This document shows, piece by piece, positions 1,488 to 30,405 of a stretch of DNA of 32,000 nucleotides; position 1 is the first letter of the stretch; each line of letters begins with the position of its first letter. The stretch covers positions 960,001 through 992,000 of the forward strand of contig OY970170.1 in NCBI GenBank assembly GCA_963706795.1. The letters are read 5' to 3'. The DNA comes from Candidatus Saccharimonadota bacterium. Its GTDB lineage: Bacteria; Patescibacteriota; Gracilibacteria; BD1-5; UBA2023. The notes beneath the pieces were generated by a model. The model saw only the letters and a program-made list of their open reading frames with translations, searched no databases and had not been told where the DNA came from. A program made the translations under genes and the position numbers.

Positions 1488-1515
1488 TTGACATACTTTT
1501 CATACATTATATACT
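1488..1515 (+). promoter_or_regulatory. Candidate promoter TTGACA-N16-TATACT for the abrB-like/MFP/RND operon
   Basis: TTGACA at 1488-1493 and TATACT at 1510-1515, about 30 nt upstream of the ATG at 1545. Confidence 0.5.
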
Positions 1516-1544: not shown

Positions 1545-1826
1545 ATGATTGAATTAGAAGACGATTGTCCCGATGACGCACATACTGGCATCAAAATGCA
1601 TGGAAGTGTGGTCGTTGGATCCAAAGGGCAAATAGTAATTCCGAGTGAAGTGAGGAAATCCCTCAATATCAATTCGGGAGATTCTATGTGTGTCATTACT
1701 AAGCATGGCAAAGCTGTCGCACTCATCAAGATGGATGATCTTGAAGACTTCATGGCATTCATGCATGACGAAATGAATACGCTCAAAAAAATGGCAATCG
1801 AACAAGCAAAAAACCTTAAAGTATAA
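1545..1826 (+). CDS. AbrB/SpoVT/MazE-type DNA-binding protein
   Basis: GSVVVGSKGQIVIPSEVRKSLNINSGDSMCV is the swapped-hairpin AbrB-type motif. The ATG at 1545 was chosen downstream of the predicted promoter. TAA stop. Confidence 0.8.
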   Translation: MIELEDDCPDDAHTGIKMHGSVVVGSKGQIVIPSEVRKSLNINSGDSMCVITKHGKAVALIKMDDLEDFMAFMHDEMNTLKKMAIEQAKNLKV

Positions 1827-1855
1827 TTATTTCTATCTCAGAGTACTTTTCTTTT

Positions 1856-3775
1856 ATGAAAAAAATTTTAGCAAGCGCACTCCTCCTCCCGTTCGTTCTT
1901 ACTTCGTGCGGAACTCCTGTAGAGACTGCAAAAACAGAAGACGCAAAAATGCCGTTTTATATCGAGACACAATTAGCAAAGGAATTTCCAAAAAACTACA
2001 CGATCGAAAAAACTGGTCGTCTAGTGGGAAGTTCTACGATTTCACTCGCTTCACAGGGGATTGGGCGTGTTCAGGCGATTAATGTACATGAAGGTTCAGT
2101 CATCAAAAAAGGACAACTTCTCGTTTCGCTCAGTGATACAGTGGCGAACTATGATCTCAAGGCTTCTCAGGCTGCAAACGGTCTCGCAAGCACGCGAAAT
2201 GCCGCCGACAGCACACGTCTCGCTCTCGATAAAACGGTAGCGGATGCACTTATTGCTCTCAATAAAGCAAAGGCAGACTACGAAACCGCCAAGCAAGATG
2301 GTGCAAAGCGTCTCGAAAAAGCACAGCGTGATGCAACGAAGAGCGATATTAATTCATCTACTTCTGACGCAACAACAACTATTGCTCAGCTCGAAGCAAA
2401 CCTTTCAAAGGCACAATTGGATTACGAAAATCTCAAAAAATCCAATGTTCAAACACTTCTCAATTACAACACGAGTTATCAGCTCTCGGTGAGTGATCTC
2501 AAAAAATTCCTCACTCGAATGACGTACGAGGGTGATAAACTTTTTGGTGTAACTGCACAGTATCCAACGGACAATGCACTTGCTCGTAAATATCTCTGAA
2601 GTGGAAATAGCTCTGTTCGTCCAGAGCTCGAATTTGCATTTTACAAGATCCAAAAAATCGCCACTGACTTCGAAAACCGCAGTGAGGTTGCGATTACTGA
2701 ATCAAACCTCATTATTGAGCTTGATGCACTCTCAGAATACTACAAGAGCTCAAAAGAATACCTTGCTGTTGCAACAAAATATATCCAGAGTTCAGTAACT
2801 TCATCTGAGTTTCCACAGACAACCGTCGATGGATATATCGCAACCTATAATGGCTACAAAACCGAAGTTCAGGGTCTCGAAGCTTCGTATGTAAATTTCC
2901 GTAATGGCGCTTCTAGTTTCCTTGCTACATACCGCAATAATGAGAACTCTGCAGCTGCTGGACTCGAAGTTCAAAAAAAGCAGATCGAAGTACAGCGCAA
3001 TGGACTCAATACTGGTGAATTTGAAGCAAACCTCGGACTCGATCGCACAAAGATTGATATCGATCGCTCACTCACTCAGGCAAAGACCACTGTCGAGAGT
3101 GCTCAAGCAAACTACGATAATTCTGTAAAAAACCGTGTAATCTCTCTTCAAAAACTTGAAGTGAGTCAAACAGATGCAAGTCTCGCCGTTCGTCAGGCTC
3201 AAGAAGAACTCAGCAAGCTTGCTATTCTTGCGCCAATTGATGGAACCGTTACTAAGGTTATTGCTTCTGTAGGTCAGGATGTGAGCGCCGGTACACTTAT
3301 GCTCGAGATCGCCAATAAAAATCCAGAGATCGTATTTGACGTAGACTTTGATACGGTTGGTCAGCTCAAGATTGGTACAGCTTCGCCCGTAACATACGAA
3401 GAAAAGACCTACACTGGTACAGTCGTTGGAGTATCTCAGGTAGCGAGTGACTCTCTTCAATACAGTGTTCGTGTTTCTCTCTCACAGAGCCCTGCACTCA
3501 TCGGTGGAATTGCAAAAATTTCACTCAAACTTCCGTCAGCAATGCCGATTCTTCCTACAAAGATTGTAAAGGTACTCACAGAACAAACAGGAGAAATCCA
3601 GACGCTTTCTGGAAGTGTATTTGTGCCAATCACTGTAAAACTTGGACGTATTAATGGACCAACAATCGAGATTCTCACGCCAATCGATCCATCTGTCGAG
3701 ATTGTAACAACCGACGTGACCAATTTTGATGCTCGTAAATACGAACCAAAGAAAAAAGACACTGAAGCAAAATAA
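1856..3775 (+). CDS. Efflux-pump membrane-fusion (HlyD/periplasmic adaptor family) lipoprotein, 639 aa, one in-frame TGA (2597-2599)
   Basis: Signal peptide with lipobox LLLPFVLTSC. The two lipoyl half-motifs GRVQAINVHEGSVIKKGQLLVSL and LAILAPIDGTVTKVIASVGQDVSAGTLMLEI are separated by about 360 aa of heptad-like sequence. ORF-track pieces 1856..2599 and 3161..3775 are in one frame with no TAA/TAG between them. Confidence 0.85.
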
Positions 3776-6800: not shown

Positions 6801-7158
6801 CCTGATCGACGCCATCAATATCAATCTCCGAAAGGGAATGAAGAGCTTCAAGGCTCTTATCGAAGCTGGCTCTAGTCGTCTTGAACCAATGATACTCACG
6901 ACACTCACAACCGCTCTTGGTATCTTACCAATCGCGCTTCGTGATAGATTTTGGTCAGGTCTTGGATTTACGATTATCTTCGGACTCATTGCTTGTACAT
7001 TCCTCACACTCTTTATTGTAAAGGGATTGTTCTACGAAGTATTTATGGTAGAGCATCATATGGGGCGGATGGTCCTCTCAGCGATCAAATGGCCGTTCAA
7101 ATTTGTATGGAATATCATCAAAAAAATCTTCTCTCGTAAAAAAACTCGAGTGAAGTAA
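3829..7158 (+). CDS. RND-family efflux transporter permease (AcrB/ACR_tran-like), 1109 aa
   Basis: Length, 12-TM-like hydrophobic blocks and two large loop regions fit the family. The position directly after the adaptor gene also fits. No in-frame TGA. Confidence 0.9.
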   Translation: MKNMLEGVPEKIVKIREHLESGFLGFWVRKYRISYLIAMAIVIMGFVALSGIPKESSPNIKFGIVMVTTVYPGTNPVDMDSLVTTKLYKEVKDIKGIKKGTTSSSLGVSSITLELQPGVDTSAFISEVRNNIGRVNLPTDAKSPSVIEVKSDTNRVYTATIYSPDESVPLEKLRILGQELKDKLALTPNVEKIDYGNTNIYDVWIVFDEQMVRSMGLTLDGIASVVRSYHKDAPIGNFAIGERSYDFRIEGKYDRGSQFLEIPIPLANGQNVRLGDIAHIERSYKDKTIDRIGLSGEKAVPYVNVVINKNDGANIFAVSKGTKDLIEKELATPAYKGVKVAYSNDLADNINDDYAELAKEAITTTVLVFICMWLFVGFKDSLFATLTLPLAFFSTFILLKAGGFSLNFLTNFSFILSFGIAVDTIIVIVQAASAKMRVGHDPRSAIMIALKEYSVPITAGVMTTIVAFIPMMVLPGILGKFLAYIPITIFGVLASGLVLAMTINSALYLAFVKRGKTFVHDDTILEYADDDERELLEYERQGKTEINETSRPLRLRVIHYLTDKYKTLLRMFLENSFLRRTAVFVPVILLVLSFFPIIGGKSLAGHVGFNLFPGSDNAFVAYTFKGAIGERAVSTDRIVPKIIDIVSKYPEVKFYTITTNDVKNSTDAGITVNVNLKKKDEREKLGLMDVFKFDTTILKDFDPIRNEGFEVASKVAEGGPPAASAVAIKLVADDASKLDLLVQAAKDFEKEIRTYQGVKNVGNSSGETPGQFVFSLKKDTITTLGLTPAQVIGEIVTTMNGMTVGTVPDGGEDLDVTLKYSNFRDSVNPDEVLSHTFRVGQKTYRIGDLVDTKFKNAIASIKREAGLITISVSSDVEDGVNATEIQSKFESFAKAYKFESGISYVTGGENAENMDLIVAVLIAFFIAVVAIFGILTLQFNSFAQPFIVLYSVVMSLPFVMVGLLLTNNQFSLPFGIGFISFTGIAVNHGIILIDAININLRKGMKSFKALIEAGSSRLEPMILTTLTTALGILPIALRDRFWSGLGFTIIFGLIACTFLTLFIVKGLFYEVFMVEHHMGRMVLSAIKWPFKFVWNIIKKIFSRKKTRVK

Positions 7159-7164
7159 TTAGCA

Positions 7165-7201
7165 ATATCCACGGTAATTCAATTACCGTGGATATTTTTT
7201 T
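7165..7201 (+). terminator. Rho-independent terminator after the RND gene
   Basis: ATATCCACGGTAATT / AATTACCGTGGATAT inverted repeat followed by TTTTTTT. Confidence 0.8.
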
Positions 7202-7217
7202 CTCATATACTCTCATC

Positions 7218-7925
7218 GTGAAAAATATTTTTTCGAATTCGCGTATCCGAATAAGTCTCATGGTTATCTGTGTGCTCTTTGGTGCGTATGCGATTTTTGG
7301 CCTTGGACTGAGTCTGTATATGGATATCAGTACTGACAAATATCGCTATGGCGATGTTTCAGGTATTCCAAAAAATTCGGTCTGACTCTTGCTTGGAACT
7401 TCCAAATATCTGGATTCTGGACAGAAGAATAGTTTTTTTGTCTCGCGTATCTGGGCAGTAAAGGAACTCTATGACGCTAAAAAAATCGACTGCGTTCTCA
7501 TTAGTGGAGACAATCGAAGTGCTTCTTATAACGAGCCCATCGATATGCAGGAGTCTCTTCTTGAGCTCGGGATTCCTTCTGAGCGCATGTATTTAGATTA
7601 TGCAGGTATTCGTACGCTTGATTCTGTGATTCGTGCTAAGGAAATCTTTGGCTTGGATAGCTATACGATCATCTCGCAGCCATTTCATAATGCCCGTGCA
7701 CTCTTTTTGGCTCGTGAGCATGGGGAGCATCCTATTGCCTATAATGCTTCTTCAATTAGTTTTTCAGAAGCTCCATTTGTGTATGTGCGTGAGCTCGTGT
7801 CTCGCACCCTCGCACTCTATGATGCCTCTTTTGATACGAATCCGCAATTTGGTGGTAAAAAGATCGAGATCGAATTTGATGCAACCATCCGCCCAGTTCC
7901 CGAAAAAATCTGTACGGCAAGATAG
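7218..7925 (+). CDS. sanA: SanA/DUF218-family envelope protein (start uncertain: GTG 7188, GTG 7218 or ATG 7260), one in-frame TGA (7383-7385)
   Basis: After an N-terminal TM segment the product reads PKNSV-G-LLLGTSKY..ISGDNRSASYNEPIDM..LDYAGIRTLDSVIRAKEIF..IISQPFHNARALF. This tracks E. coli SanA (VGVVLGTAKY..LSGDN..YNEP..LDYAGFRTLDS..ITQRFHCERALF, recalled). Confidence 0.8.
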
Positions 7926-11785: not shown

Positions 11786-13789
11786 ATGCGTAGCTTCAAT
11801 ACAAAAAAATGAGTGCAGTCCTTGGCGGTGTTTATTGTGACCTTGTGACTTGGATGCATGCTGTATACAGGGCTTTTTGGTCTCATTGGGACTGACTTCA
11901 ATGCATTCTTCCTCTATAAACAATTCAGGGGGGTACCTTCGGGGAATGTGGTGATTGTAAAGATCGACAATGCCTCGCTCGATATTCTCGCGAAGTCGGA
12001 TTTGCGCATTTTGACCTTCACAAAACAGCTCTATATCGATCTCATCGATCGACTCGAAGAAGCAAAAGTACGAGCCATAGGTTTTGATCTTGTCCTTACC
12101 AATCCAGATCCCAAAGAGCAAACACTCGCTGATCTGATAAAAAAATATGGTAATATCACCATCGCGGCCAAGCTTGGTGCGGTTAATGGTGATACCGAGC
12201 GTGTACTGCCTCGAGATCTCTATAGTCGGGATAGTTGGGGAATGATCGATGTCTTTTTTGATAAAAATATTATCACAAAGATCAAGCCGCTCTATGAGCT
12301 CGATACCTCAAAGATCGAAAATATCGCGATTAAACTCTATAGATTATCGACTGGCGATACCGCGCTTGCGGGCAGCGTTCAGGATCACACATATGCCATA
12401 AATCCTCTTCGCAAACTGCCGCTTGATAGCGATGGCTTTGTACGCATCCCATTTTTTAGGAAGCCTGAAACTTTTCCGTCGATTTCGCTCGTTGATGTGT
12501 TGGATCATAAATATGATCCGAGTTTTTTTAAGGACAAAATTGTACTCGTAGGCGAGTACGGAACATTGATCCATGATGCTCATTTCTCGCCGGTGGATTT
12601 TGGTCATGCGATGCCTTGAGTTGAGTTCCATGCAAATATGCTCGAGTGACTACTCTCAGGTAAATTTTTAAATCCCATTTCGAATATAGCCTCTTGGATT
12701 TTGGCCATCTTGCTCGGATTTTGTTCGTACGTGCTTGTGGTCTATGGTCGTATAAAATGGAATGTTATCTATTTTTGTACGCTTCCTTTTATCCTCTTGA
12801 TCGTGTCATGGTATGGAATGGCCGAGGCAGGATTTATGGTGAATTTGTTTTTGCTGCTGGTCGTCTGAATTATCGCTCCGCTCGTCGTTTGAGTGCTCTA
12901 TCGATATTTTGTCGTTGATTCGATGCGACGATTTATTGCGAATGCCTTTTCGCACTATATTTCGCCTGATGTGGTAACGGAGATTGCTAATCATCCTGAG
13001 ATTTTTGCTCTCGGCGGTGAGAAGCGTGAACTCACGGTAACATTCTCAGATATTGCAGGATTTACGACAATTTCGGAGACACTTGGTACAGATCGGCTCT
13101 TCACACTTATTAGTGAATATCTCTCGGAGATGACTGATATTCTCGTTGCCAATCGTGGAACGCTCGACAAATATATTGGCGACGCGGTGATGGGATTTTA
13201 TGGAGCTCCACTTCCACTGGATCGCCCTGAATTTTTGGCCTGCAAGACCGCACTTGAACAGCAAAAGCGATTACAAATCCTCAGTAAAAAATGGGAAAGT
13301 GAAGGAATTCCAACGGTTGCAGCCCGCATCGGTATCAATCGAGGGGAAGTCATGGTCGGAAATATTGGCTCGCATGATCGTTTTAATTACACGGTCATGG
13401 GTGATAACGTAAATCTCGCTTCTCGTCTCGAATGAATCAATAAAGAATACGGAACTCTCGTCTGTATGAGCGAAGCAGTATATGACCGTGTAAGAGAAGA
13501 TTTCGTCTGCCGCCGACTCGACTGTATCCGCGTAAAATGAAAGCATGAAGCCGTTACGATCTATGAACTCATCACATTCAAATGAATGAATGACTTCGAT
13601 CCCGATATGCTTGCTAATTACGAATCCGCGCTGAACCTCTATTTTGAGGGGCAATACAAAAAAGCGCGTGAACTCTTTGCGCGTTATCCCGATGATGCTC
13701 CGTCCGCCATTATGGGAGTTCGCTGTCTCTCACTCATCGCCGGTACCACCAAGCTCGAAAACGGTATCTTTACTATGACAGAGAAGTAA
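11786..13789 (+). CDS. CHASE2 sensor domain / class III adenylate (or guanylate) cyclase, 667 aa, nine in-frame TGA
   Basis: Pieces 11858..12619, 12893..13435 and 13586..13789 plus gaps are one frame starting at ATG 11786. The CHASE2-like part has VVIVKIDNASL..AIGFDLVL..HAMP-G-VEFHANMLE-G-LL followed by 3 TM segments. The cyclase core has ELTVTFSDIAGFTTISE..KYIGDAVMGFYGAP..RIGINRGEVMVGNIGS..FNYTVMGDNVNLASRLE-G-..IRVK-G-KHEAVTIYEL. Confidence 0.85.
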
Positions 13790-14570: not shown

Positions 14571-15143
14571 ATGAAGCAATCAATCGCAAAATTCATTTTT
14601 GAGATGCAGCATCTCAAGCAGATTAAACACGAATGATGGAGAACGGTCGGCGTGCAGTTTCCTGATAGTGTGGCCGAACACTCTCTCTGTGCAGCACAGA
14701 TTGCATATATTCTCGCTCAGATGGAGTGAGTAGATCCCTGTAAAGTAACGACGATGCTTGTGTGGCATGACATGGCAGAATCTCGTATCGGAGATCTTCA
14801 TAAAATCGCTAACCATTATCTTTCTGGCAAGCAAAAAGCCGAAGATCAGGTCATGGAGGATCAAGTTGGGCATATGGATTTTGGATCGCATATCATTGAT
14901 CTTGTCCATGAATACGAAGTTCATGAGACGCTCGAATGAAAGATCGCCAAAGATGCTGACTATCTCGAACAGGCCTTCCAAGCTCGTGTTTACCAGCAAT
15001 CAGGCTACGAAGGAACTGCATTGTTCATAGAAAATGTTGGTCGAGCTCTCAAGACAGAGAGTGCACGAAGTCTATGGAGTGAAATTTCTTCAATGGATTT
15101 CTGGGAATGGTCTAAAAATTACAACTATCACCCAAAATCATAA
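14571..15143 (+). CDS. HD-domain phosphohydrolase (YfbR-like 5'-nucleotidase family, HD_3), three in-frame TGA
   Basis: MKQS..LKQIKHE-G-WRTVGVQFPDSVAEHSL..MLVWHDMAESRIGDL..KDADYLEQ gives the H..HD..D metal motif. The gene is invisible in the standard-code track apart from fragment 14754..14939. TAA at 15141-15143. Confidence 0.8.
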
Positions 15144-15171
15144 TTCTCCTCAAGATATTAATTCAAAATAT

Positions 15172-18100
15172 ATGTTCCCATCTGTAGATCCAAAACAGTC
15201 ATTTCCAGCTCTGGAAGACAACGTACTCGCATTTTGGCGAGAAAATAAAACCTTCGAAAAATCTGTCACAAGTCGTGCGGATGCGCAGGAGTTTACATTT
15301 TATGATGGGCCTCCATTTGCGACGGGGACTCCTCACTACGGTCACATCCTTGCAGGTATCCTCAAGGATGTAGTTCCACGATATTGGACGATGCAGGGTC
15401 GTCGCGTAGAGCGCAGATTTGGTTGGGATACGCACGGTCTCCCGATCGAGAATATCGTCGAGAAAAAACTCGGGATTTCTGGGAAGAAAGACATCGAAGA
15501 AAAGGTCGGAGTTTTTGCATTTAACGAAGAATGTCGCAAGAACGTCTTTACCTATGTCGATGAATGGAAAAAAGTCGTAGAACGCTCGGGTCGATGGGTC
15601 GACATGGAGAACGACTACAAGACGCTCGACTGTGATTTCATGGAATCCGTTTGGTGGGTATTTAAGACGGTGCACGACAAGGGGCTCATCTACGAGTCTC
15701 ACCGTGTTGTTCCATACTGTCCACGATGTTCGACTCCGCTTTCGAACTTTGAGGTCAATCAGGGCTACGAAAATCGTCAGGACAAAGCACTGACTGTGAA
15801 ATTTAAGCTCTTAGATCAAGAAAATACCTCCGTTCTTGCATGGACGACCACGCCTTGGACACTTCCTGCGAACCTCGGACTCGCAGTTGGTGAAGCGGTT
15901 GAATACGCAAAGATCAAGGATCATGCAACGGGAGAATTCTATATTCTCGCACATGATCGAGTAGCGACGTACTACAAAAATCCTGAACTTTTTGATCTCA
16001 TCGAAACATTCTCTGGATCTACTCTGGTAGGACTTGGATATGAGCCAGTCGCTCAGGATGTTCGTGAGCTCGATGAGGTAGTCGCTGGTGGCGATATTGC
16101 GACTTGGTACAAACCAGGCAGTAATATGTATACTGTACAGCTCGGTCATCATGTAACAACCGACTCCGGTACAGGTGTGGTTCATATTGCTCCAGCATAC
16201 GGTGAGGACGACGCAGCAATCGGGAAGCTTACGCAGATGGGATTTTATCTCCACATCGATGCAGCTGGAAAAGTCGAGCACTGCGAATTTGGAAATAGTG
16301 AATGGGTGTTTGATTTTAATCAAACTGTCATCGATCGACTCAAGGCGGCAGGGAAGATGGTGCATGTAGGAACGATCGATCATTCGTACCCACATTGTTA
16401 CCGATGCCATACTCCGCTCATCTACCGAGCGATCAGCGCATGGTATCTCAATGTTGAATCCATCCGAGAGCGCATGCTCGCTTCCAACGCGAAAACTCGT
16501 TGGGTTCCAGAAAATATCCGCGAAGGGCGATTTGGAAAATGGCTCGAGGGCGCGCGCGACTGGAATATCTCCCGTAACCGTTACTGGGGCTCTGCGATCC
16601 CAGTATGGAAGAGCGAAGATGGTGAAATCCTCGTCATCGGATCAGTCGAAGAACTCTACGAATACAACAAACCATTCGGCGATATCGAAAAGCGCGCTGA
16701 AGGATATTTCTACTCGGCAAATGGTGCAATCGGAAACGAAACGCCGATTGATATCCACAAGCACTACGTCGACAAAATCCTCCTTCAAAAGAACGGGAAA
16801 ACCTTCACACGTATCCCAGAAGTCCTCGACTGTTGGTTCGAATCTGGATCGATGCCGTATGCACAAAAGCATTATCCATTTGAGAACAAAGAAGCCTTCG
16901 AAGCGTCATTCCCTGCGGATTTCATCTGTGAAGGACTCGACCAGACACGTGGATGGTTCTATACACTCGTGGTTCTTTCAACTGCGCTCTTTGATTCGCC
17001 AGCATTCCAGAATGTCATCGTAAATGGAATCCTCCTCGCCGAAGATGGACGAAAGATGAGTAAGTCGCTCCAAAACTATCCAGATCCGATGGAGCTCTTG
17101 GGCCGCCACGGAGCAGACGCGGTTCGACTCTACCTCATGTCTTCTCCTTCTGTTCGTGCCGAAGAGCTTCGATTCTCTGAATCTGATGTCATCGAGACGG
17201 TCAAGAAGGGAATTCTCCCACTTTGGAATACTTACTCGTTCTTCACAACCTACGCGAATATCGACGGATGGAAGCCAAATACGGGTTCACTCCACTTCGT
17301 TCGACACGGAGAAACTGATGCCAATCTCGAGATGCGACTCTCAGATGGAGGAGAAAATTCTCCGCTCAATACACTCGGTCAATCACAGGCAACAGCCACT
17401 GGTAAACGCCTCGCTGAAGCAGGAACGCAGTTTGATGTGATCGTTGCATCACCGCTTGCACGGGCTCACAAAACAGCTGAGCTTATCGCGAAGGAAGTCG
17501 GATTCACAGGCGAGATCGTAACCGAAAATTGTCTCTCAGAACACTCTGCAGGATGTTATTCTGGTCGAGCATATGACGAGATCATCGAGGAACATTTCAA
17601 GGAAACAGGCGTTCGTTATGAGCGTCACGAGGTGATCTCTCAGATCGTAAAAAATCATCCAAGTTCCGAATCCAACGAAGACTTCGATGCACGCAATGCA
17701 AAATTCTACGAAGAACTCGTGGGTCGATACCCTGGGAAGAAGATCCTCGTAGTAGCCCACGGTGGAACATTCCGCTCTTGGTGCAAACATGTCTTCGGGC
17801 TCACACACGAAGCAGCGTTTACCCGAGCATATGCGATCAAAAACGCAGAATGCGTACAGCTTCCGATGGTCGTTCGCGCGAATCCGCTCGATCGATGGGT
17901 GATGGGAGAACTTCATACACTCAGTGCAAAAGTACAAGACAGTTTTGAGCGCTACGAGCTCCAGTCGGCCTCTCGTGCGATCGTAGAATTCATGGACGAT
18001 CTCACTAACTGGTATGTTCGTCGTTCACGTCGAAGATTCTGGAAGAGTGAGAGCGACTCAGACAAGGCTTCTGCATACGAGACGCTCTATACCGTGCTCA

Positions 18101-18933
18101 CAACGCTCTGCAAGATCGCAGCTCCGATCATCCCATTCGTCACTGAACACGTGTATCGCAACCTCACAGGTCACGAAAGTGTGCACCTGGAGTATTTCCC
18201 AGCGTTCGATCGTTTCGCGGTTTCTCCGCAGCTGCTTGCGGATATGAAGAAGACGAAAGAACTCGTGACTCTCGGTCTCGCGCTCCGATCACGCAAGAAA
18301 CTCCGCGTTCGTCAGCCACTCGCATCGATCACGATCGGCGAAAACCTCGACGACTACTTCCTCGAAATCCTCCGCGAAGAACTCAACGTCAAAGAAGTAA
18401 AATTCGATGACATGTCCAAACACGCGAAGCTCGTTTGTAAGCCAAACGCACGACTCATCGGACCGAAGTTCGGGAAGGAAGTACAGGCAGTGATCGTTGC
18501 CGCAAAATCTGGAAACTTCAGTTCACTCGACGATGGAAAGGTGCAGGTTGGAGCATTCGTGCTCGAAGCAGGGGAGTACGAACTCGCCTACGAGCCACTC
18601 ACCGAAGATGCAGACATCGAAGGAGGAGCAGGAATGGTCCTCATGATGGATACCCATGTAACCGATGATCTCAGACTCGAAGGATACGCCCGCGACATCG
18701 TCCGCGCGATCCAGGATCTTCGCAAAGAATCTGCCTTTGATGTATCGGATCGTATCTCGATCGGACTCATGGCGGATACAGATATCGCTCGCGCTTGCGA
18801 AATGTTCCAATCGATCATCATGAACGAAACACTCGCGACCTCTCTTCAGATGAGTGAACTCCCAGGAGCTACCGCTCGCCGTGAAGAATCCCTCGATGAT
18901 ATGAAATTTACCCTCACTATCGCTCGTGTCTAA
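15172..18933 (+). CDS. ileS: Isoleucyl-tRNA synthetase, type 2, 1253 aa, carrying an internal histidine-phosphatase domain
   Basis: FYDGPPFATGTPHYGHIL (HIGH), GRKMSKSL (KMSKS) and NWYVRRSRRRFWK. ATG 15172 was chosen because the upstream part of track ORF 15034.. overlaps the HD gene. No in-frame TGA. Confidence 0.95.
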   Translation: MFPSVDPKQSFPALEDNVLAFWRENKTFEKSVTSRADAQEFTFYDGPPFATGTPHYGHILAGILKDVVPRYWTMQGRRVERRFGWDTHGLPIENIVEKKLGISGKKDIEEKVGVFAFNEECRKNVFTYVDEWKKVVERSGRWVDMENDYKTLDCDFMESVWWVFKTVHDKGLIYESHRVVPYCPRCSTPLSNFEVNQGYENRQDKALTVKFKLLDQENTSVLAWTTTPWTLPANLGLAVGEAVEYAKIKDHATGEFYILAHDRVATYYKNPELFDLIETFSGSTLVGLGYEPVAQDVRELDEVVAGGDIATWYKPGSNMYTVQLGHHVTTDSGTGVVHIAPAYGEDDAAIGKLTQMGFYLHIDAAGKVEHCEFGNSEWVFDFNQTVIDRLKAAGKMVHVGTIDHSYPHCYRCHTPLIYRAISAWYLNVESIRERMLASNAKTRWVPENIREGRFGKWLEGARDWNISRNRYWGSAIPVWKSEDGEILVIGSVEELYEYNKPFGDIEKRAEGYFYSANGAIGNETPIDIHKHYVDKILLQKNGKTFTRIPEVLDCWFESGSMPYAQKHYPFENKEAFEASFPADFICEGLDQTRGWFYTLVVLSTALFDSPAFQNVIVNGILLAEDGRKMSKSLQNYPDPMELLGRHGADAVRLYLMSSPSVRAEELRFSESDVIETVKKGILPLWNTYSFFTTYANIDGWKPNTGSLHFVRHGETDANLEMRLSDGGENSPLNTLGQSQATATGKRLAEAGTQFDVIVASPLARAHKTAELIAKEVGFTGEIVTENCLSEHSAGCYSGRAYDEIIEEHFKETGVRYERHEVISQIVKNHPSSESNEDFDARNAKFYEELVGRYPGKKILVVAHGGTFRSWCKHVFGLTHEAAFTRAYAIKNAECVQLPMVVRANPLDRWVMGELHTLSAKVQDSFERYELQSASRAIVEFMDDLTNWYVRRSRRRFWKSESDSDKASAYETLYTVLTTLCKIAAPIIPFVTEHVYRNLTGHESVHLEYFPAFDRFAVSPQLLADMKKTKELVTLGLALRSRKKLRVRQPLASITIGENLDDYFLEILREELNVKEVKFDDMSKHAKLVCKPNARLIGPKFGKEVQAVIVAAKSGNFSSLDDGKVQVGAFVLEAGEYELAYEPLTEDADIEGGAGMVLMMDTHVTDDLRLEGYARDIVRAIQDLRKESAFDVSDRISIGLMADTDIARACEMFQSIIMNETLATSLQMSELPGATARREESLDDMKFTLTIARV
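17287..17886 (+). other. Histidine-phosphatase (PGAM/CobC/SixA superfamily) domain inserted in IleRS (about aa 706-903)
   Basis: SLHFVRHGETDAN (RHG), NTLGQSQA, ASPLARAHKTAE, CLSEHSAGCYSG and KILVVAHGGTFRSW (second catalytic His). The flanks are the IleRS segments ..LWNTYSFFTTYANID and NPLDRWVMGEL... Confidence 0.8.
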
Positions 18934-27230: not shown

Positions 27231-28565
27231 CTATTTGCTGCTAAAAAAACTATCTACTACTTTGCGGTATGCGAGTCGTGTCTTGATGTCCTCGTAATAC
27301 GTATCACCTGGAACGAGTTTTTCTTTGAGACGCTTCACAACATCTGCATTCTGGTATTGAGCAAGAATACCATTGATTTCCATCTGAATTTCTTCATTAG
27401 AAGCTTCTACACCTCGGATGTCTCGAACCTTTTTGAGGATGAGTTCTGCAGCAACACGGCGACGAGCTTCTTTTTGGATAACTTCGTTCTTGTATTGTGT
27501 TTCATCCATCTTCATGTGCTCGAGGTAGGCCTTCATATTGTAGCCCTGACCTTCGAGGTTAGATTTTTGTTCATTGTAGATAGCCTCAGCTTCGCGTCCA
27601 ACGAGGTTTTCACCCACTTCGTATGTAGCGATGGCTTCGAGTTCTGTGAGGAGCTTCCCTTCGTCTTCTTCACGAGCACGACGCTCTTTTTCTCCGAGAA
27701 TTTCCTTCTCAAGAATATCCTTAAATCCAGCCATATCCGTCTTTACACCACGAAGTTTCTCAATGAAATCTGGAGTCCATTCTGGAGTGTGTGGTTTTTC
27801 AACCTTTTCGATCTGAGATACAAAATATACCTTTCGCTTCTTAAAAGCTTCAGAGTGGTAATCCTCAGGGAAAGTAATGTCGAATTCTACGGTTTCTCCT
27901 ACCTTTGCACCTACGAGTTTCTCCTCAAATCCAGGAATAAACTGAGCGCTTCCGATAACGAGTGGGAAATTCTGAACCTTTGTCTCAGGAATCGCGTCAC
28001 CACCCTTTTTGTCATAACCTTGTGTACTGAGTGTGACACGGTCATTTGTTTCGATTGCAGTCTTTGATGCGTCAAAACCATCATCATGGCTGTGACCTGC
28101 TTCATGAAAATGCGTAAATCGCTTGTTGATATCGGCGATTGCGTCTTCAACTTCTGACTTTTCAACTTTTACAGTTGTCTTTTTAATCGTGATTTTATCG
28201 AGCTTCTTCATATCGAGTTCGATCTCTGGAAGCACTTCGATCTCGAGAGTGATCTCGATAGGTGAGAGTGACTTCATATCAGTAACTACTCCAGCGGCGA
28301 TCGGAGTGATCTGTGCCTTGTCGAGCATTTCTGAATAATTTTTGTCGAGGTAATAGTTGATCGCACGCTCGTCGATTGCGGCCTGACCGAACTCCTTGAT
28401 CACAATAGCTTCAGGAATCTGAGCACCCTTTCGGAAACCCTTGATTTCTGCATTTTTACCAAGATTGGCAATAACGCTCGCTCGAGCTTTGTCGAATTCT
28501 TTAGCGTTGTCGGTAATAGTGAGACTTACTTTCGATCCTGGGATCTTTTTGACTTCTACTTTCAT
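27231..28565 (-). CDS. tig: Trigger factor
   Basis: MKVEVKKIPGSKVSLTI.., an FKBP-like middle region (VTLSTQGYDKKGG..FPLVIGSAQFIPGFEEKLVG) and a helical C-terminal domain. ATG at 28565; TAG at 27231-33. Confidence 0.9.
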   Translation of the reverse strand: MKVEVKKIPGSKVSLTITDNAKEFDKARASVIANLGKNAEIKGFRKGAQIPEAIVIKEFGQAAIDERAINYYLDKNYSEMLDKAQITPIAAGVVTDMKSLSPIEITLEIEVLPEIELDMKKLDKITIKKTTVKVEKSEVEDAIADINKRFTHFHEAGHSHDDGFDASKTAIETNDRVTLSTQGYDKKGGDAIPETKVQNFPLVIGSAQFIPGFEEKLVGAKVGETVEFDITFPEDYHSEAFKKRKVYFVSQIEKVEKPHTPEWTPDFIEKLRGVKTDMAGFKDILEKEILGEKERRAREEDEGKLLTELEAIATYEVGENLVGREAEAIYNEQKSNLEGQGYNMKAYLEHMKMDETQYKNEVIQKEARRRVAAELILKKVRDIRGVEASNEEIQMEINGILAQYQNADVVKRLKEKLVPGDTYYEDIKTRLAYRKVVDSFFSSK

Positions 28566-28728
28566 AATTTGCGTACAAAAAATAACCTGCCAATTATATG
28601 AAAAACGGGCGAAATACAAATTGCATTGAGCCTAAATTGCCGTCTCTTTCAGGAATTTAAGTTTTGTTTAATAAAACATCCAAAATCCTCAGGAGATACT
28701 CTCGAAAATACATGTGAAATATTCAGTT

Positions 28729-28756
28729 TTGACAAAAATTATTGCCATCGTATAGT
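28729..28756 (+). promoter_or_regulatory. Near-consensus promoter TTGACA-N16-TATAGT
   Basis: TTGACA at 28729-34 and TATAGT at 28751-56. Predicted TSS is near 28763. Confidence 0.6.
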
Positions 28757-28762
28757 CTCACT

Positions 28763-29008
28763 CGAGTCGGTATCAATATATATGTGTATGTGGCAATGAA
28801 TGTGGATACGTCCCGTGTTGCCCAGCGCAGCACTATTTCATTGAAATATTTCGGAGGTTTTTTCCGAAGTACTGGCTGACGATCCGGTGTTAAGTTATAA
28901 CACGTACGACGAGTAATTTCGTTTGTATGAGTTGCATCGGGCTCCGTCTCCTCCCTGAGATATCGATTCGCTAAATTCAAGAGGCCGTTTTTACGGCCTC
29001 TTTTCAAT
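28763..29008 (+). ncRNA. Candidate structured non-coding RNA (about 210-nt core plus terminator), class unknown
   Basis: The 5' segment CGAGUCGGUAUC (28763-74) pairs over 12 bp, two of them G-U, with GAUAUCGAUUCG (28959-70). Internal hairpins lie at 28804-13, 28815-33, 28834-48, 28850-68, 28871-88 and 28906-26. There is no convincing ORF or RBS. The unit has its own promoter and terminator. Confidence 0.55.
28979..29008 (+). terminator. Intrinsic terminator of the candidate RNA
   Basis: AGAGGCCG-TTTTTA-CGGCCTCT followed by TTTCAATT. Confidence 0.75.
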
Positions 29009-29045
29009 TGTAAAAAAGTACGAATAATAAAAGTTCGTATTCTCG

Positions 29046-29073
29046 TTGAAAAAAGCATGCCCCAGCGTATAAT
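29046..29073 (+). promoter_or_regulatory. Candidate promoter TTGAAA-N16-TATAAT for ftsA-ftsZ
   Basis: TTGAAA at 29046-51 and TATAAT at 29068-73. Confidence 0.55.
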
Positions 29074-29169
29074 GTGCGCGTTCAAATTGTTGAAACGAAA
29101 GAGAAGATTCGCTTCATAGAGAGGAGAATTCTGAGCAAAAACTTTGTACAACCTAACTTGAAACCCCAC

Positions 29170-30405
29170 ATGGTGTCCGGCTACACCTTTACCGCGATTG
29201 ATATCGGGAGTTCGAAAATCAAAACGCTTATTGGTACCTTTACTGAAGATAAAAAACTCCGAATTCTCTGAGTAGGAATATCTCCGTCGAACTGAGTTCG
29301 CAAGGGAAATATCCTCGACATGGATGAATTCAAACGCAATGTCGACATGTCACTTTCTGAAGCAGAAAAAATGCTTGGAGAGCAGACAGGTTCAGTATAT
29401 CTCTCACTTTCTGGTGTTACTATCGAGAGCGTCGTAAATACAGGAATCGTTGCCGTTCCGCACTCAGAAGTCACAGAAGACGATGTAAATCGAGCACTCG
29501 ACATGTCTCAGAATGGAGTCGACCTCGTGAATCGAACAATTCTCAAAGTAATCCCAGAGTCATTTACACTCGATGGAACCCCTGGCATCAAGAATCCTAT
29601 CGGAATGGCAGCCAAGAAGCTTGAGGTAAAATCACACATTTTTTCAATCGCCGAAAACGTCCTCGGTAATATTAAAAAGGGAATCTTCGACGTCGGAGTC
29701 GACATCGCTGATATCTACGCAAATGTGCTCTCAGCTCCAGAAGCCGTACTCTCACGCCGTCAAAAAGAGCTCGGTGTTGTATGTATTGATATCGGTGCAA
29801 GCACGACCGACATTGCAGTATTCGAAGAAGGTACTCTCATCTTTGCTTCTGTTATCCCACTAGGTGGTGAGCACGTAACATCCGACATTGCGCTCGGTCT
29901 TCGTATCTCCATTGATCTCGCCGAAAAGCTCAAACTCGAGCACGCTGATGTTCTTTTCTGTAAGGACGAAAAAGCAAAAGACGAAGATATCGATCTCTCA
30001 AAATACTCGAAAACTGAGACGACGATCGTCTCTAAAAAGTACCTCTCTGAGATTGCAAGAGCTCGATATTCTGAGATTCTCTATTTTGTAAATACTGAGC
30101 TTAAGCGTATTGGTAAAGACGGAATGCTTCCAGAAGGTGCGGTGATTACAGGAGGTGCTGCCAAGATGCGCAACCTCGTAGATCTCGCAAAAGAAATCCT
30201 CCGACTTCCTTCGGTGATCGGAGTTCCTGAGGATTCGGATCATATTTCGGGAACCTCGATTGGTGACCCACAATATGCGGGTATCGTCGGTACACTTCTT
30301 CTCTCACAAAAATTCTCTCCGAATAAGAGCAGAATACGCCTCAATATCTCATTCGGATGATTTTGGCATTCGGTGAAAAATCTCTTTCAAAAAATCCTTC
30401 CATAA
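29170..30405 (+). CDS. ftsA: Cell division protein FtsA, three in-frame TGA (29269-71, 29293-95, 30358-60)
   Basis: MVSGYTFTAIDIGSSKIKTLIG..LRIL-G-VGISPSN-G-VRKGNILDMDEF parallels E. coli VIGVGSCPSRGMDKGGVNDLE (recalled). Reading through the last TGA adds G-FWHSVKNLFQKILP, an amphipathic tail, then TAA at 30403-05. An in-frame CTG at 29131 is an alternative start. Confidence 0.9.

Follow-up and report, generated by a model that had tools for sequence, protein, structure and literature searches.

The spacer between the divergently transcribed tig and ftsA genes of a Gracilibacteria-type bacterium (Candidatus Saccharimonadota bacterium, assembly GCA_963706795.1) holds a promoter-to-terminator unit that we tentatively interpret as a young, lineage-specific and self-contained gene for a trans-acting non-coding RNA (ncRNA) of ~240 nt, the ends of which would be clamped by a terminal helix, here called P1, and by the terminator hairpin. 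The unit was analysed together with the 32,000 nucleotides surrounding it (positions 960,001 to 992,000 of contig OY970170.1), a stretch that we term the window. In the scenario that best accounts for the data, a block of ~364 nt would have been inserted in this lineage only, into the neutral stretch that separates the tig promoter from the divergent ftsA promoter. The block would amount to a self-contained transcription unit, with transcription starting at ~28763-28765 from a near-consensus sigma-70 promoter and stopping at ~29005 at a constitutive terminator. Its product would be a discrete and most likely non-coding RNA with both ends buried in helices, an arrangement that may protect it from exonucleases, while the enclosed part would form a four-way junction bearing a short hairpin and a long arm that is well determined. 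Such an RNA might act in trans, either by binding a protein or by base pairing, as a young species-specific small RNA (sRNA). A first-pass annotation of this DNA had likewise proposed an orphan promoter-to-terminator ncRNA with paired ends and no known family. This proposal survives our tests, whereas two of the arguments offered for it, six internal hairpins and the absence of a ribosome-binding site (RBS), fall.

Presence or absence of the unit in close relatives proved to be the most informative test. The divergent gap, put at about 600 nt by the first-pass annotation, is 604 nt long, with the tig ATG at 28565 and the ftsA ATG at 29170; the local gene order is lepB-secA-tig on the minus strand and ftsA-ftsZ on the plus strand. 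In blastn comparisons L001, a Patescibacteria metagenome-assembled genome, and L012 and L013, two further contigs of the same Tig cluster, are colinear with the window at 77-82% identity and show one and the same single break, from 28631 to 28996-29000. The flanks of L001 align right up to this break, with nearly 100% identity on the tig side. Within the block so delimited, 96 nt of AT-rich sequence precede the promoter, which is followed by the RNA and by most of the terminator hairpin; the T-run of the terminator is common to the relatives without the unit, the alignment of which resumes from 28996-29000. The GC content of the block is 39.7% as against 45.2% for the window.

At the tig-ftsA locus the unit is missing from five syntenic relatives (L001, L012, L013, L016 and L014; Table 1). 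Since L014, despite a Tig identity of only 59%, also has a short gap, the alignments indicate that the short gap is the ancestral state and that the window acquired its block, promoter included, by an insertion specific to its lineage. The distance between the conserved tig-promoter block and the ftsA -35 element is ~75 nt in L014. Certain other relatives carry unrelated cargo at the same place: in L003 the gap (1677-3000 of that contig) houses an open reading frame (ORF) for 176 aa at 2241-2771, the product of which is Cys-rich with a hydrophobic, signal-peptide-like N-terminus, while the contig encoding P0010 has a 151-aa ORF. None of these cargo ORFs has a match in Pfam, and tblastn searches provided no sign that the block is a remnant of them. 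Evidently, to judge from these sequences, the two divergent promoters flank a spacer that tolerates lineage-specific cargo and is a recurrent site for it.

Searches for relatives of the unit beyond this locus were consistently negative. Rfam 15 yielded no matches at gathering thresholds across the whole window, in a test that took in SRP, RNase P, tmRNA, 6S, riboswitches, HEARO, raiA and OLE, and a permissive scan (E<=10) of 28560-29170 returned only sub-threshold matches to the terminator hairpin and to anti-hemB. ARAGORN detected neither a tRNA nor a tmRNA. The earlier failure, from the sequence alone, to recognize SRP, RNase P, tmRNA, 6S or riboswitch cores is thereby borne out by a covariance-model scan. 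The unit has no blastn match among phage and plasmid records. When seven exact words from it were sought in viral contigs, six were without matches and the seventh, a 19-mer, matched once (L008) in a context whose flanks fail to align; a 20-mer sought in metagenome contigs gave three chance matches, all in unrelated GC-rich coding contexts, and in one of these (L010) the matching 20-mer is the reverse complement of an RBS plus ATG. A 148-aa antisense ORF spanning the unit recovered only its self-match, P0121, both from 5.8 billion proteins and, in a search without a word index, from 1.84 billion representatives. A single-sequence covariance model of the unit (208 positions, 68 pairs) found only itself in the window and ten related loci (98.8 kb). 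Similarly, blastn, nhmmer and this covariance model recovered no homologue from the Tig-anchored syntenic loci drawn from genome contigs and from Logan, NCBI and ENA assemblies, and there is no second copy in the window or in the related loci. The first-pass annotation had named a lack of conservation or covariation in relatives as what would refute it, and this lack is seen in a strong form: no syntenic relative has the unit, nor does any of the collections searched. By this sequence evidence it is a single-genome insertion and not a conserved structured-RNA family.

Within the block, the near-consensus promoter reported earlier is present with 11 of 12 consensus positions. Sites matching at least 11 positions are rare: only three occur on both strands of the window (64 kb of strand) as against 0.66 expected from shuffled sequences, all of them with a 16-nt spacer. 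The remaining two drive real genes: one, conserved in relatives, is that of ftsA, and the other, at 1488, precedes an AbrB/MazE-like ORF. Because such sites are so rare in the window and the other two drive genes, the promoter of the unit is probably real. It is also separate from the ftsA promoter, as had been claimed, the latter lying downstream of the unit.

The predicted RNA begins and ends in strong helices. As first noticed from the sequence, the 12 nt at the predicted start pair with a segment close to the 3' end: P1 has 12 bp (10 Watson-Crick and 2 G-U), is predicted with a probability of 0.99, and is present in the minimum free energy (MFE), centroid and maximum expected accuracy (MEA) structures alike. 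Both mismatched positions of P1 are G-U pairs on the plus strand. Its 3' strand ends 8 nt ahead of the terminator hairpin (28979-29002), which has a GC-rich stem of 10 bp, with UUUUC behind it, and is predicted at -16.9 kcal/mol with a probability of 0.97. The claim of a strong terminator hairpin accordingly holds for the predicted fold, whereas a dedicated scan makes no terminator call here, since the U-run falls partly inside the stem. Inside P1, the MFE, centroid and MEA structures agree on a four-way junction, the branches of which are listed in Table 1. Of the three abutting hairpins that had been proposed here, 28815-33 is worth -8.3 kcal/mol, while 28834-48, a local alternative, contributes no more than -0.7 kcal/mol.

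The fold of the whole unit stands out from its surroundings. For 28763-29008 (246 nt) the z-scores are -5.9 and -5.5 on the plus strand versus -3.8 and -3.5 on the minus strand, a difference that we count in favor of an ncRNA on the plus strand. Among 376 windows of 246 nt covering both strands of the 32 kb it ranks first, with the next independent window at z = -4.2. Without the terminator (28763-28970, 208 nt) the z-score is -3.6 on the plus strand and -2.0 on the minus strand, and most of the signal comes from P1 and the terminator.

Table 1. Features of the tig-ftsA region of the window and state of the corresponding gap in relatives (Tig, identity to Tig of the window; RNA features are predicted)
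Feature	Position or length	Strand	Properties
Lineage-specific inserted block	28632-28995		~364 nt; replaces ~10 nt of close relatives; seen by blastn and alignments
Probable sigma-70-type promoter, TTGACA-N16-TATAGT	28729-28756	+	11/12 consensus matches
P1, 5' strand, CGAGUCGGUAUC	28763-28774	+	+1 predicted from the promoter at 28763-28765
5' domain	28794-28843	+	stem CAAUGAA/UUCAUUG around two small hairpins (including 28815-28833); poorly determined, pair probabilities ~0.5
Hairpin C	28847-28871	+	10-bp stem, UUUUU loop, includes GGAGG; probability 0.94, -9.6 kcal/mol
Arm D, long and irregular	28874-28951	+	~29 bp in five segments; pair probabilities 0.68-0.96; core 28883-28941, -19.4 kcal/mol
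C/U-rich segment, GUCUCCUCCCUGA	28946-28958	+	links arm D to P1; partly single-stranded (28952-28958) by the unpaired-probability profile
P1, 3' strand, GAUAUCGAUUCG	28959-28970	+	pairs with 28763-28774
Intrinsic terminator, AAGAGGCCGU-UUUU-ACGGCCUCUU then UUCA	28979-29006	+	predicted fold
44-codon ORF under code 25, MCMWQGMWIRPVLPSAALFHGNISEVFSEVLADDPVLSYNTYDE	28782-28916	+	two in-frame TGA; ATG 19 nt after the predicted +1
tig promoter and 5' untranslated region block	28566-28631	-	conserved; forms the left border of the insertion; nearly 100% identical to L001, L012, L013; recognizable in L014
ftsA promoter, TTGAAA-N16-TATAAT	29046-29073	+	downstream of the unit; conserved in relatives without it; equivalent TTGAAA...TATAAT in L014
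tig-ftsA gap, window	28566-29169 (604 nt)		Tig 100%; promoter-RNA-terminator unit
tig-ftsA gap, L001, L012, L013	~240 nt		Tig 86%; no insert
tig-ftsA gap, L016	261 nt		Tig 64%; no insert
tig-ftsA gap, L003-L006	1324 nt		Tig 64%; unrelated 176-aa ORF
tig-ftsA gap, contig of P0007	<=914 nt between called genes; ~680 nt allowing for a truncated ftsA call		Tig 62%; no called gene
tig-ftsA gap, contig of P0010	799 nt		Tig 61%; 151-aa ORF
tig-ftsA gap, L014	228-276 nt		Tig 59%; no insert
L007, L017			Tig 64% and 63%; synteny broken

Several observations weigh against a functional ncRNA, and they define the main rival to it, which we consider unlikely though by no means negligible: that the block is a functionless young insertion, the remnant of a foreign or rearranged cassette with a real promoter and terminator, perhaps transcribed, in which the helix and the hairpins are fortuitous. 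The unit is confined to a single genome, being missing from all syntenic relatives, and the same spacer takes unrelated cargo elsewhere. Without homologues, moreover, support from conservation or covariation cannot be had for this sequence. The enclosed interior (28775-28958, 184 nt) has z-scores of only -1.7 on the plus strand and -2.05 on the minus strand; by these folding statistics the multi-hairpin interior does not clearly exceed chance, and the "at least six hairpins" once adduced in support are near what shuffled sequences give. Perfect long-range helices of at least 12 bp are common too, with 13 on the plus strand and seven on the minus strand of the window when up to two G-U pairs and an enclosed span of 50-400 nt are allowed. 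Pfam scans of the window reveal no partner protein nearby, and no significant target is predicted among 19 genes considered as targets. A young insertion may, after all, be transcribed without having a function. On the other side, P1 starts exactly at the predicted +1 and ends just before the terminator, so that the helix is notable for its placement, not for its existence; the fold of the unit is the most extreme in the window; and there is no trace of a coding ancestry, as tblastn with the neighboring cargo ORFs, Pfam and PHROGs were all negative. A separate rival, to which we give the lowest probability of all the readings weighed here, is the remnant of a mobile or retro-element, either a non-autonomous transposon of the MITE/PATE type or an orphan retron-like msr-msd RNA with P1 as its terminal repeats. 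The clean ~364-nt indel would suit such an origin, and from general knowledge of the layout of retron ncRNAs, terminal inverted repeats around hairpins and one long arm are reminiscent of them. However, the block ends lack significant terminal inverted or direct repeats (the best end-to-end match is 7 nt, p ~0.33-0.37 against shuffles), the window and the loci of relatives have no second copy, and the phage, plasmid and viral collections have no matches. Pfam scans of the ORFs of the 32 kb likewise detect no reverse transcriptase (RVT), transposase, TnpB/IscB, Cas or toxin partner, and the RNA ends in a terminator instead of leading into a reverse transcriptase gene.

Two other readings relate the unit to protein-coding genes. 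That it is a small protein gene, with the ATG at 28782 opening a 44-codon ORF behind an AU-rich leader devoid of a Shine-Dalgarno (SD) motif and with the helix and hairpins as mRNA structure, seems improbable to us. The host uses genetic code 25, with TGA read as Gly: all three in-frame TGA codons of ftsA (29170-30405), at 29269-29271, at 29293-29295 and near the 3' end of the gene, align with Gly in FtsA of three relatives, and standard code-11 ORF calling splits ftsA, secA and other genes. The 44-codon ORF is open under this code, which is confirmed for the genome; an SD-like motif precedes only 2 of the 14 gene starts in the window, the leaders being short and AU-rich (with the tig -10 element, TATAAT, at 28592-28597 on the minus strand, the leader of that gene would be only ~20 nt long); and the AbrB/MazE-like gene has the same layout, with an AU-rich leader and its ATG 24 nt after the predicted +1. 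Because the genome so rarely uses SD motifs, the "no RBS" argument is void as evidence for non-coding, and the recoded genetic code together with the limited use of SD invalidates the usual ORF and RBS arguments here in general. Nor were the ORFs fully inventoried at first: the lengths of 44 and 15 codons (the latter at 28927-28974) hold under code 25 only, and a 38-codon GTG-initiated ORF was missed. Against coding, the codon log-odds of the 44-codon ORF, trained on 9,072 codons of the genes of the window, is -0.30, within the non-coding range; a value as low as this is found in only 2% of real 44-codon segments, whereas 30% of non-coding frames score at least as high. Its two TGA codons contrast with a share of 0.46% in the genes of the window (P = 0.018 for at least two in 44 codons of a coding sequence), and protein, Pfam and PHROGs searches with it yielded no homologue and no family match. 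The 38-codon ORF is itself only borderline (-0.04). On this codon evidence a coding role is disfavored. We regard it as still less probable that the unit is a cis-acting addition to ftsAZ, that is, an extra promoter, a structured leader and a terminator that would resemble those of attenuators or riboswitches and gate read-through into ftsA. Its orientation is that of ftsA, it lies 165 nt upstream of the ftsA ATG, and riboswitches usually show the same layout, in which P1 closes a multi-helix junction and a terminator comes directly after it. Yet the terminator persists with either strand of P1 blocked and under every other constraint imposed, with or without the upstream segments, its best alternative partners reaching only -10.1 and -10.4 kcal/mol as against about -17 kcal/mol. 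Because it forms regardless of the rest of the fold, a riboswitch or attenuator of ftsA is not indicated; in these folding models the terminator is constitutive and the unit a transcript independent of ftsA. Further, ftsA keeps its own conserved promoter (11/12) downstream of the terminator, no aptamer family matches, and the relatives do without the unit.

A candidate for base pairing in trans was considered and is not significant. The C/U-rich UCUCCUCCC of the RNA can pair with GAGAGGAGA in the ftsA leader at -21 kcal/mol, ranking first among the 19 genes (seed-shuffle p = 0.004), and the ftsA leader of L001, which differs at the GAGAGGAGA stretch, reaches only -12.7 kcal/mol. It failed the control, in which 16% of random 23-mers from the window do as well against some leader; other segments of the RNA outscore the C/U-rich one on Tig, UDG and TruB.

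The young, self-contained gene for a trans-acting ncRNA is thus the reading to which we lean, short of an even chance. A bolder extension would have it as the first sighted member of a new class of structured ncRNAs in code-25 bacteria belonging to the candidate phyla radiation (CPR), carried as a cassette at the recurrent tig/ftsA site and having a real cellular role, for instance in protein sequestration or in an episymbiotic lifestyle, with relatives beyond the reach of exact-word searches. We hold this joint claim to be a long shot, if marginally less so than a small protein gene. If real and functional, the unit would be among the very few candidates for regulatory or structural RNAs in Gracilibacteria-type bacteria, which are uncultured, have a recoded genome and SD-poor translation, and whose RNA biology is essentially unexplored. 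It would further imply that complete RNA genes can arrive as compact cassettes at a tolerated spot between divergent housekeeping promoters. The interest of the unit derives from its host, a recoded and uncultured CPR bacterium, and from the cleanness of the insertion. As a single-genome orphan it is chiefly of value in giving transcript mapping a specific target.

The Tig homologues carry Gracilibacteria or Patescibacteria annotation, and the proteins of the window recovered under code 25 by Pfam scans are all housekeeping in nature: an HlyD/AcrB efflux pair, DUF218, a molybdopterin oxidoreductase domain, FecR, a CHASE2 cyclase, an NTPase, an HD domain, IleRS, UDG, cyclophilin, TruB, LepB, SecA, Tig, FtsA and FtsZ. 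On the tig side, the segment 28528-28631, comprising the 5' end of the gene, its leader and its promoter, is ~100% identical between the window and L001, L012 and L013, genomes that are otherwise 77-82% identical in DNA. This points to strong constraint on the 5' regulatory region of tig. On the ftsA side, an inverted repeat, TACGAA-N9-TTCGTA, is situated at 29019-29041 (plus strand) immediately upstream of the ftsA -35 element, and L003 has a palindrome, tcgcaataattattgcga, at the same position. From its placement, the repeat could be an operator site.

Farther from the unit, the third near-consensus promoter (TTGACA-16-TATACT, 1488-1515, plus strand) lies ahead of the ORF for a 93-aa protein of the AbrB/MazE type (SpoVT_AbrB fold; 1546-1827), which is directly upstream of the HlyD/AcrB-type efflux pair and has no adjacent toxin gene. 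The second-strongest fold outlier is found on both strands at ~6971-7390 (z about -3.4 to -4.2 in the overlapping windows that begin at 6971 and 7141). It falls on the 3' end of the AcrB-like gene plus the short gap that separates this from the DUF218 gene, and is probably a bidirectional terminator or a palindrome. A perfect inverted repeat of 12-13 bp (13387-13399 and 13481-13493, both strands) is located within the gene for the CHASE2-adenylate/guanylate cyclase. The IleRS-like protein (1299 aa, 15034-18933, plus strand) shows an unusual fusion or insertion: its class I catalytic core is separated from its anticodon-binding domain by a complete histidine-phosphatase domain (His_Phos_1, PGAM-type; residues 753-942).

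Comparison with known systems brings out both what is familiar and what is peculiar in the unit. With anti-hemB (RF02837) it shares CGUCUCCUCCCUGAG, which matches the loop consensus of that family almost exactly and is followed by a terminator; however, the match reaches 16.1 bits, far short of the gathering score of 49.5, and the helices of the family are not formed. An anti-SD mechanism was also entertained and is unlikely because the host rarely uses SD motifs. In retrons, the msr-msd RNA of ~200 nt has terminal inverted repeats (a1/a2) that pair the RNA ends and so enclose a few hairpins as well as a long arm. The 12-bp P1 of the unit pairs the RNA ends in a similar manner, a feature that is necessary for a retron and not specific to it. 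Unlike a retron, the unit has no reverse transcriptase within 32 kb, ends in a terminator that is followed by ftsA, and has no similar sequence found elsewhere. Stand-alone sRNAs derived from riboswitches are exemplified by SreA/SreB of Listeria and EutX/Rli55 of Enterococcus and Listeria. The unit resembles these in having a junction closed by P1, then a terminator, and no cognate ORF under direct control, and departs from them in lacking a match to an aptamer family and in having a terminator that does not compete with P1 or the upstream segments. 6S RNA (SsrS) is of similar size and comparable in its paired 5' and 3' ends, joined in a closing helix, and in being encoded by a stand-alone gene. 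Nevertheless, 6S forms a rod with a central bubble whereas the unit is predicted to fold as a four-way junction, the 6S models do not match it even at E<=10, and 6S is a conserved housekeeping RNA while the unit is missing at the tig-ftsA loci of five syntenic relatives.

A further likeness is with the generic trans-acting sRNA gene. Some differences are apparent here too: with ~240 nt the RNA would be among the longer ones of its kind, a 12-bp helix would tie its 5' end to the 3' region, neither a seed nor a target is conspicuous, and the transcript is a predicted one; we also know of no RNA chaperone context for this phylum. On the other hand, the unit stands alone between divergent genes, has a strong promoter and a 3' GC-rich hairpin with a U-run, is without a convincing ORF, and is restricted to one lineage, as are many young sRNAs. 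Taken together, the unit belongs to no known RNA family and is, as a kind, an ordinary orphan intergenic sRNA gene, displaying at the sequence level the attributes by which such genes are recognized: its own promoter, an intrinsic terminator, an intergenic location and a non-coding character.

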